In this document: piece after piece, positions 6,921-18,400 of the stretch | Position numbering within the stretch: position 1 is the stretch's first letter | Layout of the letters: the number at the start of each line of letters is the position of its first letter | From: Mustelus asterias | Taxonomy: Eukaryota | Direction of reading: 5' to 3' | NCBI RefSeq assembly: GCF_964213995.1 | Contig: NC_135802.1 | Coordinates: 57,474,001-57,538,000, forward strand | Length of the DNA: 64,000 nucleotides | The notes under the pieces: model-generated | Seen by the model: only the letters and a program-made list of their open reading frames with translations | Database searches by the model: none | What the model was told of the DNA's origin: nothing | Made by a program: the position numbers and the translations under genes

Positions 6921-8455
6921 CAAGTTAGACAGAATAGTCTCCATGTTGCTCTTGAAACCTTGAGGCCATCTGGAGTTCAACCCCTCCATGTACACATTGT
7001 GCACAAACTCTCTGACAGGTTGAAAAGTGCACCTAACATTCCCTGGCAAATGACGATCAGTTCTCTCAAATTCTGTAGCTGAGTCCTCTGTGACAGAACT
7101 GGTATGTGACCATGCCCTTCAGGGGTTGGGCTTACTATCCCTTTGTTCTAGCTCTTGCATAATTTAAAGCAAAACATGCGCAGCACAGAAAGATATCATT
7201 CAGCCTTTTATGACTTTTCCTGCACTTTGAAAGATCCATTTCCTTGCCGCAAACAATTTGGCTGCTGTGATTTCTACATTGGCTGCGTTTGCTGCCAGTG
7301 CCGTGAATGTACAGTTGTATATGTGGCTGCCATTTTTATTGGGGGTGGGCAATGTGCAGCAGGGTGTAGGCACACTCATCACTGATCCTAGAATTGGAAA
7401 TATTACAATGTCAGCAGCATCAAGTTAATACATTTAACAATGCCCTCCACCCACAGCTCACCCCACCTTCAAGCATCATTTTCTTTGCAAATCTAGAATG
7501 GTCCTTACAATTGCATCTTAGCTTCAATTGTGAACACAGGTCTCCACAAACTTAGCTACAAATCATAGCCTTATAAACTGAGACAGGCTGAAGTGAAAAT
7601 CTTACACTCTCAGATGTTGAAGTAAAGCCCTGGGACCTCACAAACACAAGTCATTTGTTGCCATTTTGGACAATGAAGTGAGAAGTTATCAGCATTTATA
7701 AAGGTGAATCTCTGTGCATTTGCTGATGAGTGTGCATGCGTAGATATGCTGTCAGACTCGGAGACCATCCTCCTTTGGCAGGAGTTACAGAGGTCTACAT
7801 TACTATTGTGACTAAACTTTAGAAGTAATTAATTGGCTGTAAATCACTTTGTGACAAAAGGCACTGTATAAATGCAAGTCTTTCATTCCAATTGTTCCAT
7901 GCCCCTGCTATTATCCCATCGCAAATATTTCCCCCTCAAGTATTTATCGAGTTTATTTTCGAAAGTAATCACTGAATCTGCTTCCACCATCATTTCAGGC
8001 AATGAACTGCAAATCATAACCGCTCACAGTGTAATGTATTTTCCTCGTGTCATCTCCTGTTCATTTGACAATTAAATCTGTGTCCTTGTTACTGACTCTT
8101 CTTGAAATAGTTTCTCCCTATTTACTCTATCAAACCCAGCATGATTTTGAACGCCTCTATCAAACATCTCCCTAACTTTTCTACTTTAAGGGGAACAATC
8201 CCTACCCTCACCATATAGCTGAGGTCTTTAATCTAATTTCTGAAGCCCAACCCCTGAAGGGCATGGTCACATACCAGTTCTGTCACAGAGGACTCAGCTA
8301 CAGAATTTGAGAGAACTGATCGTCATTTGCCAGGGAATGTTAGGTGCACTTTTCAACCTGTCAGAGAGTTTGTGCACAATGTGTACATGGAGAGGTTGAA
8401 CTCCATCTGGCCTCAAGGTTTCAAGAGCAACATGGAGACTATTCTGTCTAACTTG
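6921..8455. repeat. Inverted duplication 2: arms 6921-7133 and 8243-8455
   Basis: 213-bp arms are reverse complements with 3 differing bases counted by eye. Confidence 0.95.
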
Positions 8456-9045
8456 TCTGAGATGATTCCTGCAGGAGTAAGAGGTACATTTTCCAAAAGA
8501 TTATAATCCTTTCCTTAACAGACTGAGGAGTATCCACATTCTTAACTGCTGAAATTAGTGATCTGACAGACTGGATTCAAACTCAGCTTCAACTGTTAAA
8601 TGGGCATTGAATCTGGCATCAAGTGTGCCAGTCTGTTCCTCCCCAGTTGGGATTGTTACCAGTGTGATCTTTATCTCAGAGGAAATGACTTGGAATTTTT
8701 ATGATCTTCCCATTAACGATAATTAATCCACATTTTCATTTTATGAAGTGCACAATTTTAATCAACATTGAATTGAAATGTTTCTGATCTCCACTAGGTG
8801 TTCCTGTTCGATGTTCACAGGCATTGTGATTTTATTAAAAAATGATCAGAATTGAACTTGAAATGTGATTAATTATTGTCATTTGTTTACAATCTTGAGC
8901 ACTTTTTAAAGTCTCTGTAAAAAACCAACACATAGCTGTTGTCTGCGCACAATAAGTAAGCATTACAAAGTCACTAACTATTTCCACCTTCAGTACATAA
9001 TCAATAAATTAGTATCATTTAAACTATAAGCATGTCTTTCTGCAG

Positions 9046-10319
9046 GTGATGTACATGCTGTCTTGTGTAGAAATGGAAAAGGTTACCGTTTAACTGAAAA
9101 CCACAGCACCTCAAACCGTAAAGAATGTAAACGTATTCTTCTGGCTGGTGGAACAATCAGTAAAAATGAACAACATGGGCTTGTAGAGGGATTCATTCAA
9201 TCAACACGAGGACTTGGATTCCATGGAGACCCCAAGCTTAAAACATCTATTGTACCAATACCACATACTGCCTCTGTCCCTATTGATTCCTCATGCCAGT
9301 TTCTTGTTCTAGCTTCAAGTGGATTTTGGAAAGTGCTAAGTAGACATGAAGTAGTTTCAATCTCATTGGAAATGCTTTCTTTTTATTTAAGATCTTTTCA
9401 CACACAATCTAGAGAAATCCGCTCAGTAGTTCATTCTTTACACGTTATGGAACCAGATGTACACACTGTTGATAAAAGTTCCACTGTAGCACAGTTGCTT
9501 GAGGAGTTTTCACAGCAGGGACATAGAGATGCTTTGATGTCCCTTAAACGTTTGTTTGAGGAGGTATTAATAAGTAAGAAACATGGCTGGAAGACCATGA
9601 AACCTCTAGCCAAGCGTTTAAAATTAATGAAAGATCGTGATTCTCTTTGGCAAGCCATGCGTAATTTACTTCAGAACATTCCAAGACAGGAAAAATCCAA
9701 GTCACCAATTGAAAAGATTATAGAAGTTGTGTCAAAAGAGCTGGAACATGACAGTGGTATATTCGTGAAAAGTGTGCCCAAAGATACTTTAAATGAGAAG
9801 AACAGTGAAGACAAGACAAAAGCAGACAATTTTCTTGAGAAGTCTCTACCAGAAAATGAAGGTAAGGACAACGGGACTTTCATAGAACACAAGGAGCATT
9901 TAACAAAAGAGAAATATAATGATAACAAACTATCTGTGATTCCTGAGGCTGAGTTGTCTTCACACACCGAGAGAATAAATGGTCACCTAAGCCAAGAGGA
10001 TATATCCAAAAAATTAAAGAAGCAGAAATCGGTGATCTGGCATCCTGAGCAAATTGAACCAACTCCTTCAGAAAAGTTTGCCATTGAAAAATTAGATGAA
10101 GAAGCTTATCTTATGAATCAGGACGAAGCCAGTGAAGTTTCAAGTCAGGAAACACCCGATGAACGACAAGAAATTCAATATGAAACTCTAGCAAATACAA
10201 TCAGCAAACGATTAGTTGAAATTGCTAAACAAGCAGGAGCTTCTGACAACATAACAGTGCTCATATTGTTGCTTCCTGGATGTAATAAATTAATCCCTAA
10301 AAGAGAAGAAATGACATAA
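9046..10319 (+). CDS. PP2D1: PP2D1 terminal coding exon
   Basis: Acceptor tctttctgcag|GT at 9045/9046 continues the frame as G-DVHAVLCRNGKGYRLTENH, then TRGLGFHGD, QFLVLASSG and GASDNITVLILLL. Spliced CDS from ATG 114 is 2235 nt (744 aa). Confidence 0.9.
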
Positions 10320-10577
10320 GTTCCTCCATTTCAGAAGTGGTGCATCTGAAGAAAGTTCCTTGGCAATCATGCCTGGAGGCCACACTGCCGTCAGTGACTA
10401 GGGTGGATTTTTCCCACATAATTTGTATGAGACTATCCTCCATTCATTGTTCGTTTGTCTGGAAAAATTGTTGTCGTTTTGGGCATGAGTTCTTATTGCT
10501 ATTGTTGGTAGAGACTCTTAAATAGATTCTGTAGATTGTTTGCTGTAGTGTGCTCTTTAAATAGACTCTGTTTGCTG

Positions 10578-10587
10578 AATAAATAAA
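10578..10587 (+). terminator. Candidate PP2D1 polyadenylation signal (overlapping AATAAATAAA)
   Basis: About 260 nt after the stop codon, followed by GT/T-rich sequence. Confidence 0.5.
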
Positions 10588-11758
10588 CTTTGTTTGCTGT
10601 GAAATACATTGTTTTATGTAAGTCTTGCTGTAAGACCTGGTCTGTGTCCAACTCCCTAGCTGACACTCTGGGGTAAAATACTCTGTATAGTGTGATACTG
10701 AGCAGTAAAGGTTCAGCAGATGCAATCCAATTCTTTGTTAAGTGGACTGATCGCATCTGGCTCAGTGGAAAAATGTGACAAATTACTTAACTTTCTCTGC
10801 GATAGGGAGAAGATAAAATCAGCCAGCATTTCTACAGCTTATTGCTGGGCATTAATCATCCTGAGAAATGTGTGACAAATGCTGTGTCTGGTTGCAGATC
10901 AAATTTGACACTAATGCCCTCCTGATAAGATAGCCCACATACAGTATTAACCTGAAACTAGAGAAGGTGCAGAGGAAGTCCATAATCAGATGAAGAGTTT
11001 GGCAAAACCGAGACCTTGAAGACTTTATTTTAATATTGTTGTGCTGCTTTCCACTTGTCTGCAGACAAATTGACAATCTTCCCAACAAGATGGAAGGGAA
11101 GTCAATGGAAGTAGGCCACAGCTGTAGACCAGTGGGGACAATTGCTAGCATCCAGAAGACAGTGTCAGCTCAAGACCATAATTGGGAGCAGGGGATTGGA
11201 AGAAACAGAGATTTACAGATTAGGAGTAGGGGTAGACTACTCACACCCCCGAGCCTGTTCTGCCAGTCAATTTGATAATGGCATATCCAACTGTAATCTC
11301 AATGCTACATTCCTATCTATCTCTGATAAATTTTCACCGCTTTTCTAAAATCAATAATCTATCTAGTTCTGCCTTAAAAATGTTCAAAGACTCCATTTCC
11401 TTCACCTTTTGAGGAAAAAAGTCTCAAATATTCAACACCCTCAGATAAAAAAATTCTCATCTCTGCCTTAAATTGGTGACGTTTTTCTTTCAACAGTGAT
11501 CAAAACATTTAAGATCCTGAGGGGTACTGCCAGGGTGGATGTGGAGGGGATGTTTCCTCATGTCAGAGAATCTAGAACTAGGGCTCACTCATTTAAGACA
11601 GAGATGAGGAGAAACGTTTTCTTTCAGTGGGTCGTGAGTCTTTGGGACTCTCTTCCTCAAAAGGCAGTCATGATGTGGAGTTGCCGGCGTTGGACTGGGG
11701 TAGGCACAGTAAGTAGTCTCACAACACCAGGTTAAAGTCCAACAGGTTTATTTAGTAT

Positions 11759-11793
11759 CACGAGCTTTCGGAGTGTGGCCCCTTCATCAGGTG
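11759..11793 (-). ncRNA. Minimal type I hammerhead ribozyme
   Basis: Minus strand reads CAC-CUGAUGA-A-GGGG(ccaca)CUCC-GAAA-G-CUC-GUG. Confidence 0.8.
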
Positions 11794-12707
11794 AGTGAAG
11801 TTCACAAACAGGGCATATATATATACTCCTCAGAAGACAAACATGGGGCACGGCGGACAGAGTACCCTTCGTCGTCCAGTACTTCCCCGGAGCAGAGAAG
11901 CTACAACATCTTCTCCGGAGCCTTCAACATGTCATCGATGAAGACGAACATCTCGCCTAGGCTATCTCCACACCTCCACTACTTGCCTTCAAACAACTGC
12001 GCAACCTCAAACAGACCATTGTACGCAGCAAACTACCCAGCCTTCAGAAGAACAGTGATCACCTCACCACACAACCCTGCCACAGCAACCTCTGCAAGAT
12101 GTGCCGGATCATCGACACGGATGCCATCATCTCACGTGAGAACACCATCCACCAGGTACACAGTACATACTCTTGCGACTCGGCCAACATTATCTACCTG
12201 ATATGCTCAGGAAAGGATGTCCCGAGGCATGGTACATTGGCGAGACCATGCAAACGCTACGACAACGGATGAATGAACACCGCTCAACGATCACCAGGCA
12301 GGGGTGTTCCCTTCCTGTCGGGGAACACTTCAGCAGTCAAGGGCATTCAGAATCTGATCTTCGGGTGAGCGTTCTCCAAGGCGGCCTTCACGACACATGA
12401 CAACGCAGAATCGCTGAGCAGAAACTGATAGCCAAGTTCCGCACACATGAGGACGGCCTCAACCGGGATCTTGGATTTATGTCACACTATCTGTAACCCC
12501 CACGACTTGCCTGGGTTTACTAAATCTCACTAACTGTCCTGACTGGAGACAATTCACACCTCTTTAACCTGTGCTTAACCTTCTCTCCACTCATATTGTC
12601 TGCATCTGTAAAGACTTGATTACCTGTTAATACTCGCATTCCAACCATTATCTTGTCAATTGAGTTTGTGTCTATATATGCTCTATTTGTGAACTGAACT
12701 CTTCACT

Positions 12708-12742
12708 CACCTGATGAAGGGGCAACGCTCCGAAAGCTCGTG
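12708..12742 (+). ncRNA. Minimal type I hammerhead ribozyme
   Basis: CAC-CUGAUGA-A-GGGGC(aac)GCUCC-GAAA-G-CUC-GUG; predicted cut after 12739. Confidence 0.85.
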
Positions 12743-14139
12743 CCACCAAATAAACCTGTTCGATTTTAACCTGCTGTTGTGAGACTACTTACTGTCAAAA
12801 GGCAGTGGTAGCAGAGTCTTTGAATATTTTTAAGGCAGAGCTAGATAGATTCTTGATTAACAAGGGGGTGAATGATTATTGGTAGTCAGAAATGTGGCAT
12901 TGAGGTTACAACCAGATCAGCCATGATCTTACTGAATGGCAGCACAAGCTTGAGGAGTCGAGTGGCCCATTCCTGGTCCTAATTCAAATGTTCATGTGAC
13001 CTCTGATTCTAGATTCTCCCATAAGAGGAAGCATCCTTTCCATATCCATCCTGTCAAGCCCCTCAGGATCTTATATTATTCAATCAAGTCACTTCTTACT
13101 CCTTTAAACTCCAGCAAGTACAAACCTGACCTGTCCAAACTTTCCTCATAAGACAACCCACCCATTCCTGGTTTTAGTCTAGTTAACGTTCTCTGATCTG
13201 CTTCCAATGCATTTATATCCTTCCTTACATAAGGAGAACAATACTGTACATAGTTCTCCAGATGTAATCTCACCAATGTCTTGTATAGCCTCCCTTCTTC
13301 TGAATTCAATTCCCTTCTCAATAAATCATAATTCTATTTGCTTTTCTAATAACTTGTTGTACTTGCATACCTTTTGAGATCCCTCTGCATCTCAGAGCTC
13401 TGCAGTCTCGCACCATTTAGATATGTTGCTTTTCTATTCTTCCTGCCAAAATGGACAAATTCACATTTTCCTACACTTCAGTCACTTAACCTATCTATAT
13501 TCCCTTGTAGCCTCCTATGTTCACTTCACAACATACATTCTTGCCTATCTTTGTATCAATAGCAAATTTAGCAGCTATACCTTCAGCCCTTTCATCCAAG
13601 TCATTGAGCTGATTGGGATGAGGAAAGGGTGTGAAAAGAGGCTTTCGGGAATAATCCAGGCACAGGGATTCTGGGGATGGCGAAGTCAGGCTCCTGGCAG
13701 TGACTTGGATTGGGAGAGGCCAAAGGCTTCCTTGTGAAGCTTGCCTGTTTTAAGCACACCTGTTATTTCTGACCCATAATGGCTGAATAAAGACTAGACA
13801 TTTAGTACCTTAAGGAGTTGGCAGTTCCCACTTCAGATCAGCTGCCAGGCTCCCTTTCAGTTCCAGTTAAATTTAAGTTCTGAGGCCAATAATGTCATCA
13901 TGTGTACACCTTCCCCACCACTGCCAATGTTTTGCAGAATCCTCCTGAGTGGCTTGAGTATATTAAAACTTACAAGTCAGGTGAATGGGGTTGTGTTACT
14001 TGATCCTGATATTTTAATCCCTAGGGATCTTGATCCGTCTATTGTGGGTGTGTTTGGGTGATGGTGTGGGAGATTAACATTGAGGCCATAGTGTTAAAGT
14101 GAAGATTGGCTTGAGTGAGGTACTGGAGGACTTTTTCCT

Positions 14140-14452
14140 ATTTGTTCATGGGATGTGGGCATCGCTAGCTAGGCCAGTAATTATTGCTCAACTCGAGGGT
14201 CATTTAAAAGTCAAGCACATTGCTGTGGATCTGGAGTCACATGTAGGCCAGACCAGGTAAGGACGATACATTTCCTTCCCTAAAGGACATTAGTGAACCA
14301 GATGGATTTTTTGGACAATGGTTTCATTAGACTTTTAGTTCCGATTTTTATTAAATTCAGATTTCACCATCTGGTGGGATTCAAACCAAGGTCCCCAAAG
14401 CATTACCCTGGGTCTCTGGTCCAGTGACAATACCACTGTGCCACTGCCTCCC
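14140..14452 (-). mobile_element. MER131-like (MetaSINE-type) tRNA-derived SINE
   Basis: Minus strand: head GGGAGGCAGTGGCACAGTGGTATTGTCACTGGAC, core CATCTGGTTCACTAATGTCCTTTAGGGAAGGAAAT, family-B LINE tail. Confidence 0.75.
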
Positions 14453-15049
14453 AAGTGACTGCTAGAACTTGTGCAACCTGTGGTAAATTACTGTCTTGAG
14501 AAAGGGATAAGAGATGATCAAAAAAGAGAAAAAAAAATTAGTGAAAATTAATTTATTCTCTATTTGGAGCATACTGCATAATTCATAAGTGCCTAAATTA
14601 TATTAAATGCTTCAACATTTAAAACTCTGTGACAAAAATCTATTTTTAAATTTTGATTTGTTTTCTTTAAATGGAATATTTAATGTTGAGATTTTAAGGG
14701 GATAATTTTAACTTTTGCTGAGTGTGGCAAACTAGGAGTGGCATCTTAAATGTTCAGTCTGGATTTCAGTCCCATTGCTGTTAAAAAGGAAGATCAAACA
14801 AGAAATATAATGGGCTGCCAATGTGAACATCTTAGGTGAAAATTACCCAGAGTACCCATGCCTTGCCCGACCATCATTGGCAGAACCTTCTGTCATAAAT
14901 GGAACTCATTGTACAAATGCATCTGCATAGCTTCAGTCATCCCTTATCATTTACCAAGATCCACACTTTTAACCTTGCCTTTGGTCACCTCCCTTAAATT
15001 TTCTCATAACTTCTAAATATCTGATTCCTCTTACGAATTGTCTTTTGAG

Positions 15050-15332
15050 AACTAAGAACAGTACAGCACAGAAACATGTCCTTCGGCCCACCAAGCCTGC
15101 GCCGACACATGACCCCTTTCTAACTTAAAGACCTTTTGCCTATACATGGTCCATATTCTTCTATTCCTTGCCAAAATGCCTCTTAAACGTTGCTATTGTA
15201 ACTGCTTCCAACACCTCCTCTGGCACTTACCACCTTCTGTGTAAAAAACTTGCCTCTCACATCTCCTTTAAACGTTCCCCTTTTTACCTGAAGCCCATGA
15301 CCCTAGTAATTGACATTTCTACCTTGGGGAAA
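15050..15332 (-). mobile_element. CR1 LINE 3' tail fragment
   Basis: AGAACAGTACAGCACAGAAAC..CCTTCGGCCC tail resembling that at 18900. Confidence 0.75.
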
Positions 15333-15339
15333 AAGACAC

Positions 15340-16858
15340 AAACGAGTCGTCCGGACTTGGAAAAATTCATCAACTTCGTCTCCAGTTTCTATCCCTCCAT
15401 CACCTTCACCTGGTCCATCTCAGACACTTCCCTTGACCTTTCTGTCTCTATTTCCAGCAATAAACTATCTACCAATATCCATTACAAGCCCAGTGACTCC
15501 CACAGCTATCTGAACTACAGCTCTTCGCACCCTACATCTTGTAAGGACTCCATCCCTTTCCCTCAGCTCTTTCGCCTCTGGCATTGTTCTGATGATGCCC
15601 CTTTCCAAGGTGATGCTTCTAATATGTGTTCCTTCTTCCTCAACCGTGGTTTCCCACCTACAGTTGTTGACAGGGCCCTCAATAACGTGCGGTCCATCTT
15701 CCGCGCCCTGACCCTCACTCCCTCCCCTCCCCCGCAGAACAAGGATAGAGTCCCCCTTGTTCTCACGTTTCACCCCACCAGTCTCCGCATGCAAAGTATA
15801 ATCCTCCGCCATTTTCGCCAACTCAAGCGTGATGCCACCACCAAACACATCTTCCCATTACTCTGTCAGCATTCCGCAGAGACCGTTCCCCCCAGGATAA
15901 CCTAGTCCACTCCTCCACTATACCCAACAACTCTTCCCATCACCCACGGCACCTTCCCATATAATCCCAGGTGTAACACCTGCCCCTTTACCTCTTCCAT
16001 GCTGACCATCCAAGGCCCAAAACACTCATTCCAGATTAAGCAGCGTTTCACTTGCATCTCTTTCAATTTGGTCTATTGCATTCGCTGCTCTCAATGTGGT
16101 CTCCTCTATATTGGAGAGACCAAACGTAGACTGGGTGATCACTTTGCTGAGCACCTTCGGTCTGTGTGCAATCAGGTCCCTTACCTTCCGGTTGCTTGCC
16201 ATCTTAACACATAATCCTGCTCCCATGTCCACATGTCTTTCCTTGGCTTGCTGCAATGTTCCAGTGAAGCTCAACGCAAACTGGAGGAACAGCATCCCAT
16301 CTTCCCACTAGGTACTTTACAGCCTTCCGGTCTTAACATTGAATTCAACAACTTCAGATGATTAGCTCTACCCCACCTCGACGCCTTTGTTTTCATTTTA
16401 TTTAGTTTTCAAATGTTCTCTACCTTTTATTTCTTTATTGTCTTTATTTTTCTTTCCCCCCACTCTTTCCCCTTATTTTACCCCCTTTGCTTCCCTTTTT
16501 CTCAACTTACCTCTCCCAATCCTCACCCCCCCCTCCCCCAACAGCTTTATCTGTCACAGCTTACCCTCTGATTTTAATTTCTCTGCCATTTGGCCATTCA
16601 CACCTTCTATTCCATCTATGGACTGCCATTAGCAACCTTTCCCCGTGTTTTTATGGCCATGACTCATCTTTCATTCCCTCACCCCACAGTATAAATAGCT
16701 CCCACTTTCTATGCCTTTTAGCTTTGACAACGGGTCATCTGGACTCGAAACGTCAGCTCTTTTCTCTCTTTGCAGATGGTGCCAGACCTGCTGACCTTTT
16801 CCAGCATTTTCTCTTCTGATTTCAGATACCAGCATCCGCAGTAATTTGCTTTTATCCT
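15340..16858 (+). mobile_element. 5'-truncated Penelope-like element (family B): RT thumb/linker plus GIY-YIG, frameshifted
   Basis: HYKPSDSHSYLNYSSSHP..KDSIP, FLNRGFP, RVPLVLTFHP, LVYCIRCSQCGLLYIGETKRRL..AEH; pyrimidine-rich 3' region ending in a hammerhead motif. Confidence 0.92.
16720..16758 (+). ncRNA. Minimal type I hammerhead ribozyme, U3-A8 core variant
   Basis: AGCU-UUGACAA-C-GGGUC(aucug)GACUC-GAAA-C-GUC-AGCU. Confidence 0.72.
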
Positions 16859-17289
16859 GGGATATTAAAGGCTGTGGGTATGATTAGCGAACAAGACTAG
16901 GGGATTGTAAAAAAAATATTAGCACTGTGTAGAAAAATATTAGCACTGACTTGATGGACCAAATGGACTGTTTCTAAGCTATAACAGTCTGTGTTTCCCA
17001 GTAATGGCATCCTGGATGCTTCGTATTTAACACAACAGTTTTATGCCCTTAATAGATTGGATAAAAATGAAGCTACTCCATTACCTTGCCTCCTTAGATC
17101 GTCATTCTGGAATGAAAATGGAAGAGGGATCAAACGCTTTGGCTTGCTTGTAGGACAAAACTGATGGTGTAACATTGCATTGTTTATGAACAATATGGTA
17201 CATAAGAAATGCACCAAAATAGATGTGAAATCAATTGGACACCTTCACTGGGTTCAGTGTTATTTCTACACAGGGGAAAAGTGCGTTTT

Positions 17290-18400
17290 TAGAGTCATAG
17301 AGGTTTACAGCATGGAAACAGGCCCCTCGGCCCAACTTGTCCATGCCGCCCTTTCTTTTTTAAAACCTCTAAGCTAGTCCCAATTGCCCGCATTTGGCCC
17401 ATATCCCTCTAAACCCATCATACCCATGTAACTATCTAAATGCTTTTTAAAAGACAAAATTGTACCCGTCTCTACTACTACCTCTGGCAGCTTGTTCCAG
17501 ACACTCACCACCCTCTATGTGAAACAATTGCCCCTCTGGACACTTTTGTATCTCTCCCCTCTCACCTTAAACCTATGCCCTCTAGATTTAGACTCCCCTA
17601 CCTTTGGAAAAAGATATTGACTATCTAGTTGATCTGTGCCCCTCATTATTTTATAGACCTCTATAAGATCACCCCTCTGCCTCCTACGCTCCAGAGAAAA
17701 TAGTCCCAGTCTATCCAGCCTCTCTTTATAACTCAATCCACCAAGTCCCGGTAGCATCCTAATAAATCTTTTCTGCACTCTTTCTAGTTTAATAATATCC
17801 TTTTTATAATAGGGCGACCAGAATTGCACACAGTATTCCAAATGTGGCCTTACAAATGTCTTGTACAACTTCAACAAGACATCCCAACTCCTGTATTCAA
17901 TGTTCTGACCGATGAAACCAAGCATGCCGGATGCTTTCTTCACCACTCTGTCCACCTGTGACTCCACTTTCAAGGAGCAATGAACATGTACTCCTAGAGC
18001 TCTTTGTTCTGTAACTCTCCCTAATGCCCTACCATTAACTGAGTAAGTGCTGCCCTGGTTCAATCTAGCAAAATGCATCACCTCGCATTTGTCTAAATTA
18101 AACTCCATATGCCATTCGTCAGCCCACTGGCCCAATTGATCAAGATCCCGTTGCAATTGGAGATAACTTTCTTCACTGTCCACTATGCCACCAATCTTAG
18201 TGTCATCTGCAAACTTACTAACCATGCCCCTTATATTCTCATCCAAATCATTAATATAAATGACAAATAACAGAGGACCCAGCACTGATCCCTGAGGCAC
18301 ACTGCTGGTCACAGGCCTCCAGTTTGAAAAACAACCCTCTACAACCCTCTCAAGAAGCCAATTTTGTATCCATTTAGATACCTCACCCTGGATCCCGTGG
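17290..18400 (-). mobile_element. CR1/HER1 LINE ORF2 3' part
   Basis: ORF 17515-18312: VPQGSVLGPLLF, KFADDTK, HLEYCVQFWSP. Confidence 0.95.

Follow-up and report, generated by a model that had tools for sequence, protein, structure and literature searches.

Two hammerhead cores in a head-to-head Penelope element of Mustelus asterias: probable passive cargo in a very large family

Two hammerhead ribozyme cores on opposite strands of one short insertion, situated between convergent genes, raise the question of whether such an element acts on the transcripts of its neighbours or simply carries its ribozymes along. The insertion lies in a 64,000-nucleotide stretch of Mustelus asterias contig NC_135802.1 (positions 57,474,001 to 57,538,000 of the forward strand), here called the window, whose own numbering is used throughout. 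It is very probably a 5'-truncated, ORF-broken copy of an endonuclease-bearing Penelope element (PLE) with its two ends placed head to head, and its hammerheads are most likely passive cargo, which folding predictions show closed off in any transcript passing through the element.

The insertion occupies positions 11669-12794, a minus-strand arm being followed head to head by a plus-strand arm, and is flanked by a 12-bp target-site duplication (TSD), TCAAAAGGCAGT, at 11657-11668 (left copy, plus strand, inside an older repeat) and 12795-12806 (right copy, plus strand). The same stretch is single-copy in two paralogues of the host repeat within the 64-kb window, which bears out the 12-bp TSD given in the preliminary description. 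The host repeat is presumably CR1-like; nested fragments of this type, in both orientations, make up the host site at 11219-11664 and 12807-13086, and give rise to additional inverted repeats around the insertion. At the left end of the insertion, a 37-nt PLE tail (11669-11705, minus strand), a feature described in PMC3846280, PMC8557442 and PMC11167929, is present only on the minus arm. It is followed by an inverted, 5'-truncated pLTR copy with a private 7-nt deletion (11706-11821, minus strand), and then by a short filler at the arm-arm junction (11822-11825), where 4 extra nucleotides (TA letters) stand out in comparison with loci L007, L009, L011, L017, L018, L022 and L026. The plus arm consists of the 3' remnant of the PLE ORF, with the RT-EN linker and the GIY-YIG endonuclease (11826-12496, plus strand), and of the 3' UTR/pLTR forming the tailless end (12497-12794, plus strand). 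The inverted repeat between the arms (11706-11800 and 12701-12795) is 92% complementary, and identity between this copy and the closest relatives scored is 88-93%.

Two stops (11958-60, 12398-400) and a frameshift near 12207 disrupt the ORF remnant. The frameshift splits the GIY-YIG motif, which accounts for an endonuclease match (PF01541, E 0.0019, 18.9 bits) under the cut-off of 22.6. The reverse transcriptase is cut off in this copy, while a longer sister copy, L036, which is 81% identical to the remnant over 89 aa, has RVT_1 with an E value of 2e-10. A CX2-5CxxC linker upstream of GIY-YIG defines the Neptune/Nematis clades (PMC8557442), and by its C-x4-C-x2-C motif (12078-12104, plus strand) the linker of the present element reads as Neptune/Nematis-type. 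Linker, GIY-YIG domain, pLTR and tail all agree with the earlier attribution to a Penelope element with minimal type I hammerheads. Two further remnants were seen in the window: a second short, tailed end piece of the same PLE family (1145-1222 and 1532-1604), and a remnant of a distant second PLE family (15129-16214, plus strand; GIY-YIG E 0.0043), whose endonuclease is 37% identical to that of the element over 35 aa and in which a core-pattern search found no hammerhead core.

Each arm carries a minimal type I hammerhead with an AGCU palindrome. The plus-strand motif (12708-12742) has a stem I of 3 bp and a stem II of 5 bp, with a predicted cut at 12739/12740; the minus-strand motif (11758-11794) has 4 bp in both stems and a predicted cut at 11762/11761. 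In both, CTGATGA (12711-12717 on the plus and 11790-11784 on the minus strand) is followed by one unpaired A, stem II, GAAA and GCTC, and a core-plus-stem-II search across the 64-kb window returned these two motifs as the only ones of their kind. All features of the minimal type I hammerhead are present, namely the core boxes, an extra base after A9, G10.1-C11.1, a palindromic 15.2-16.2 and the lack of helix III. The two opposite-strand cores, both cut positions, which follow from the sequence, and the reduction of stem III to AGCU in both arms were therefore correctly described beforehand. The accompanying statement that stem II pairing is kept while the loops differ applies to the plus arm (5 bp, AAC loop), but in the minus arm a G>A substitution at a CpG has broken the C-G pair that closes stem II, leaving 4 bp and no compensatory change. 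An Infernal search had been proposed as a check; across 8000-18000, the Rfam scan gave no hit to a hammerhead family with E<=1, which is to be expected where helix III is missing.

The family to which the element belongs is very large. In the 3.68-Gb genome, its 33-nt end motif has 160,758 exact copies, and a 29-nt core pattern, which leaves out the subfamily with a longer stem II, has 63,511 exact matches. The reversed control pattern gave 0, so the hammerhead cores are not due to chance. The layout was followed in 60 stretches totalling 489 kb, which surround plus-strand matches within the initial 2.07 Mb of contig C1 and take in about 75 of the 100 matches listed; this sample contains 141 matches with 139 usable arms and leans to young copies, since it comes from one contig start and is centred on exact plus-strand matches. 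Altogether, 106 of the 139 arms stand head to head, forming 53 pairs, with exactly one tail in 50 pairs, both cores intact in 25, and a TSD of at least 8 bp in 47, compared to 2 of 257 mismatched (shuffled) flank-pair controls. Across 210 loci, many of which were picked for truncation, 156 pairs were found, 143 of them one-tailed and 132 with a TSD, whose modal length is 12 bp. The head-to-head layout with one tail and a TSD is the default of this family and, by a rough extrapolation, the genome total of such elements is of the order of ten thousand or more.

How such two-armed copies arise touches on matters that PMC11167929 and PMC8557442 treat as open, namely the mechanism of PLE insertion and the role of the hammerhead in it. 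The PLE of the anole, by prediction a dimer, cleaves both strands of its target and extends each of them, using uncut RNA as the template; its reverse transcription begins at two internal sites bounding the tail, and hammerhead cleavage is dispensable for its insertion in vitro (PMC11167929). A similar course is proposed for the shark family. The PLE endonuclease would cut the two strands with a stagger of about 12 bp. Primed by each exposed 3' end, reverse transcription would begin at one or the other of two start sites separated by about 37 nt, giving one tailed and one tailless arm as with the anole PLE in vitro (PMC11167929). Both cDNAs would read through the uncut hammerhead and then stop early, after which end-joining would unite them mid-element with an overlap of 0-7 nt or a short insert. 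We infer such two-ended priming from the way in which one cDNA per target strand fits a tailed plus a tailless arm around a 12-bp TSD. The clean junctions (33 of 48 pairs, the other 15 being left out of the arm-length analysis) mostly show an overlap of 0-7 nt or a short insert. Two-ended priming may already be in print; a search of the openly accessible literature, with subscription journals outside its scope, found no clearly on-topic paper on inverted or twin priming for Penelope.

Alternatively, a single cDNA could prime itself and be copied back, whereby one arm would be a copy of the other; the verdict on the present locus would be the same. Self-priming is discussed in PMC3846280, and the resemblance between arms speaks in its favor: 59 of 61 typed pairs have arms of the same subfamily (31% by chance), the fine haplotypes agree in 26 of 30 pairs, two of the 4 mismatches being trivial, and an identical rare core change is present in both arms of L089. 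However, self-priming predicts a fixed side for the tail, whereas among 17 clean and unequal pairs the tail was on the longer arm in 6 and on the shorter arm in 11, so that its side does not depend on arm length and no arm is consistently the first. Moreover, some single insertions unite differing arms: those of L064 and L123 belong to different subfamilies despite one tail and a perfect TSD, those of L068 have unlike haplotypes, each found in 5-6 other loci, and those of L088 have 25 differences in 400 nt. Judged from their sequences, these chimeric insertions favor two templates, usually from one source, over a copied-back cDNA. Later gene conversion could also yield such chimeras. Self-priming is unlikely, though a serious competitor. 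The clearest chimera is L064 (5400-5610), a short insertion with one tail, an 11-bp TSD and arms of subfamilies D and B.

Two-ended priming, as set out above, runs through an uncut hammerhead. If the ribozyme nevertheless cut part of the template RNA during transposition, arms beginning at the cut would record it. Truncations were counted as arms with homology ending at set offsets, with 30 loci per offset checked. In the 489-kb sample, 7 of 139 arms start at -1 to +1 of the cut site. A local excess is seen in subfamily B, with about 433 arm starts at the cut as opposed to about 168 at 4 nt and about 117 at 8 nt upstream of it. In contrast, a variant of subfamily D, the subfamily of the present element, has no such step (about 40, 45 and 78 at the same positions), and the subfamily B count at 5 nt downstream is no lower, its 850 being a raw number from uninspected loci, much of which comes from a palindromic join common to all subfamilies. 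Template cutting is further opposed by the preference of the joins for microhomology, by both arms of the present element having been copied across the uncut site, and by anole RNA, which in the available text of PMC11167929 is described without read ends at the cut site. On this evidence it is unlikely. A broader synthesis can be offered tentatively, with chances that we put somewhat below even. In it, the tens of thousands of head-to-head copies in the genome would be a fossil record of a dimeric protein with two RNAs, which lays one cDNA on each strand of a 12-bp staggered cut, starting at the tail-bounding sites, the truncated cDNAs then being joined by the cell; the mixed-subfamily arms would prove the two templates, and the subfamily B excess at the cut site would reflect ribozyme cleavage in the germ line.

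The majority sequences of the four subfamilies agree at the core positions; variation between them is seen at N7, at H17 (which is U, A or C but never G), in loop II and in stem I. Stem I covaries between subfamilies (CCAT/ATGG versus CAC/GTG) with its pairing maintained. The invariance of the core between subfamilies reads as constraint in the source elements. Once inserted, the cores decay nearly neutrally and almost symmetrically at the core CpG, G12>A being present in 8,351 copies and C11.1>T, at the partner position of the CpG, in 9,236 (ratio 0.90); the 10% shortfall of G12>A leaves room for weak selection or strand bias. Core positions are less variable than non-core ones in the 114 of 198 typed arms used (1.44% vs 2.76%, p=0.009), in a comparison where typing relied partly on core letters, paired arms are not independent, and low-frequency source variants inflate the non-core value. 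Selection is likely to keep the hammerhead only in active source elements. The two intact cores of the present copy, at its level of identity to relatives, need no local selection, since intact cores in both arms are also found in nearly half of the sampled pairs. Apart from point changes, many copies have lost stem II, repeatedly and precisely, where short direct repeats enclose it; these losses could be jumps of the reverse transcriptase over the folded hairpin or deletions at the DNA level. The arms of L089 (4536-6542), which differ at only 4 of 850 nt, share a change at A6 that breaks the core; insertion of a ribozyme-dead RNA is the likely explanation, unless the arms were homogenized.

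The possibility raised in the preliminary description, that the element cuts read-through RNA arriving from either of two convergent genes with fold-back as an on/off switch, is given a very low probability here. Upstream, a gene with a PP2C domain has its last exon and 3' UTR at 9047-10600 (plus strand), with AATAAA at 10578-10583 and a contig end at 10600; we take this gene to be PP2D1, the name given earlier, which fits its adjacency to RAB5A. The X5 contig leaves the window at the exon start and ends at 10,600, 17 nt past AATAAA, 1.07 kb before the element and 2.1 kb short of the relevant cut (12739/12740). The spliced-looking X7 contig, from a related organism, comes closer: it reaches 11,557, about 110 nt short of the element. 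Its part at 10601-11557 lengthens the 3' end of the PP2C gene by about 950 nt beyond the first poly(A) signal, which means that read-through exists at least there; both contigs come from runs not recorded as RNA, break in repeats and carry no information on ends, strand or level. Among the matches listed, no contig joins the unique flank to the ribozyme. On the other side, the neighbor is convergent, as had been stated, but RAB5A ends far off: the stop codon falls at about 25,843, and the closest AATAAA signals (24,900 and 24,607) are about 12 kb from the element.

The architecture of the element itself points the same way. Both arms face outward, hence a through-transcript of either strand has just one sense ribozyme, and the antisense copy is in every case transcribed before it. 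In predicted equilibrium ensembles of the whole-element RNA of either strand, stem II has a probability of 0.000, with long-range pairing of the core at 0.999 and an arm-arm duplex of -179.7 kcal/mol; even in isolated arms, the predicted stem II probability is only 0.003 and 0.047. The idea that fold-back inactivates the ribozyme is thereby upheld in part, but the model predicts a permanent off state rather than a switch, and a core permanently buried in a duplex argues against the cutting of read-through RNA. Single minimal hammerheads do not cleave in vitro and dimers cleave little, a dimer being reportedly required (PMC4209133), although the anole PLE hammerhead cleaves with the help of protein (PMC11167929). 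Despite this precedent, the consensus fit of both cores and the short distance to the contig ends, the missing stem II pair of the minus arm, the frequency of doubly intact pairs, the remoteness of RAB5A and the lack of a bridging contig among those listed make cutting of read-through RNA extremely improbable, and a regulatory role at this locus is not supported.

The locus itself is of little weight: its layout is ordinary and already published, and the value of the present data is in the family statistics. More than 60,000 intact cores and tens of thousands of two-armed insertions allow counting tests of template number, tail origin and cleavage in vivo.

Inverted pLTRs with a one-sided tail and a TSD are known from EN+ PLEs (PMC3846280, PMC8557442), and dual minimal hammerheads on opposite strands were noted in Schistosoma (PMC4209133). 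In the openly searchable literature on Penelope hammerhead ribozymes, subscription journals being outside the scope, no shark data were found. Host-recruited regulatory hammerheads of the Clec2/RECK type (named in PMC6155905) would be located in host transcripts. Here the X5 contig stops at 10,600 and the X7 contig at 11,557, with the proviso that contigs break in repeats and show no RNA ends. Non-LTR retrozymes likewise have a type I hammerhead derived from PLE pLTRs (10.64898/2026.07.22.740005), but they are head-to-tail tandems with two sense ribozymes, while the present element is head-to-head with one ribozyme per strand and an ORF remnant. Identity with a non-LTR retrozyme was rejected on account of this layout, which has no tandem of at least two sense hammerheads. 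The closest structural match is with Adineta Pen2/Pen2a, which share an inverted 5'-truncated copy at the 5' end together with GIY-YIG at the C terminus (PMC3846280; scheme in PMC8557442) as well as a tail of 30-40 nt at one end and a TSD of about 10 bp (PMC3846280). Unlike in Adineta, the simple head-to-head form is the majority in the shark, in a family of more than 160,000 arms with a TSD mode of 12 bp, and no (TA)n target was seen at the insertion site. Poseidon of Anolis carolinensis resembles the proposed course of insertion, with two start sites bounding the tail, both strands cut and extended, an uncut template and a predicted dimer (PMC11167929); it belongs to another clade, the CX2-5CxxC linker found here being absent from Penelope/Poseidon, and the available text of that study leaves the inverted structure unexplained. 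The ribozymes, finally, share with the minimal hammerheads of metazoan PLEs (PMC4209133) the core boxes, the unpaired base after A9, G10.1-C11.1, the palindromic 15.2-16.2 and the missing helix III. Their helix II is 4-5 bp as opposed to 7-8 bp in Schistosoma, their helix I is shorter at 3-4 bp, and the 63,511 exact cores compare with about 4,000 in coelacanth and 9,000 in Xenopus, which were obtained by a different search (PMC4209133).
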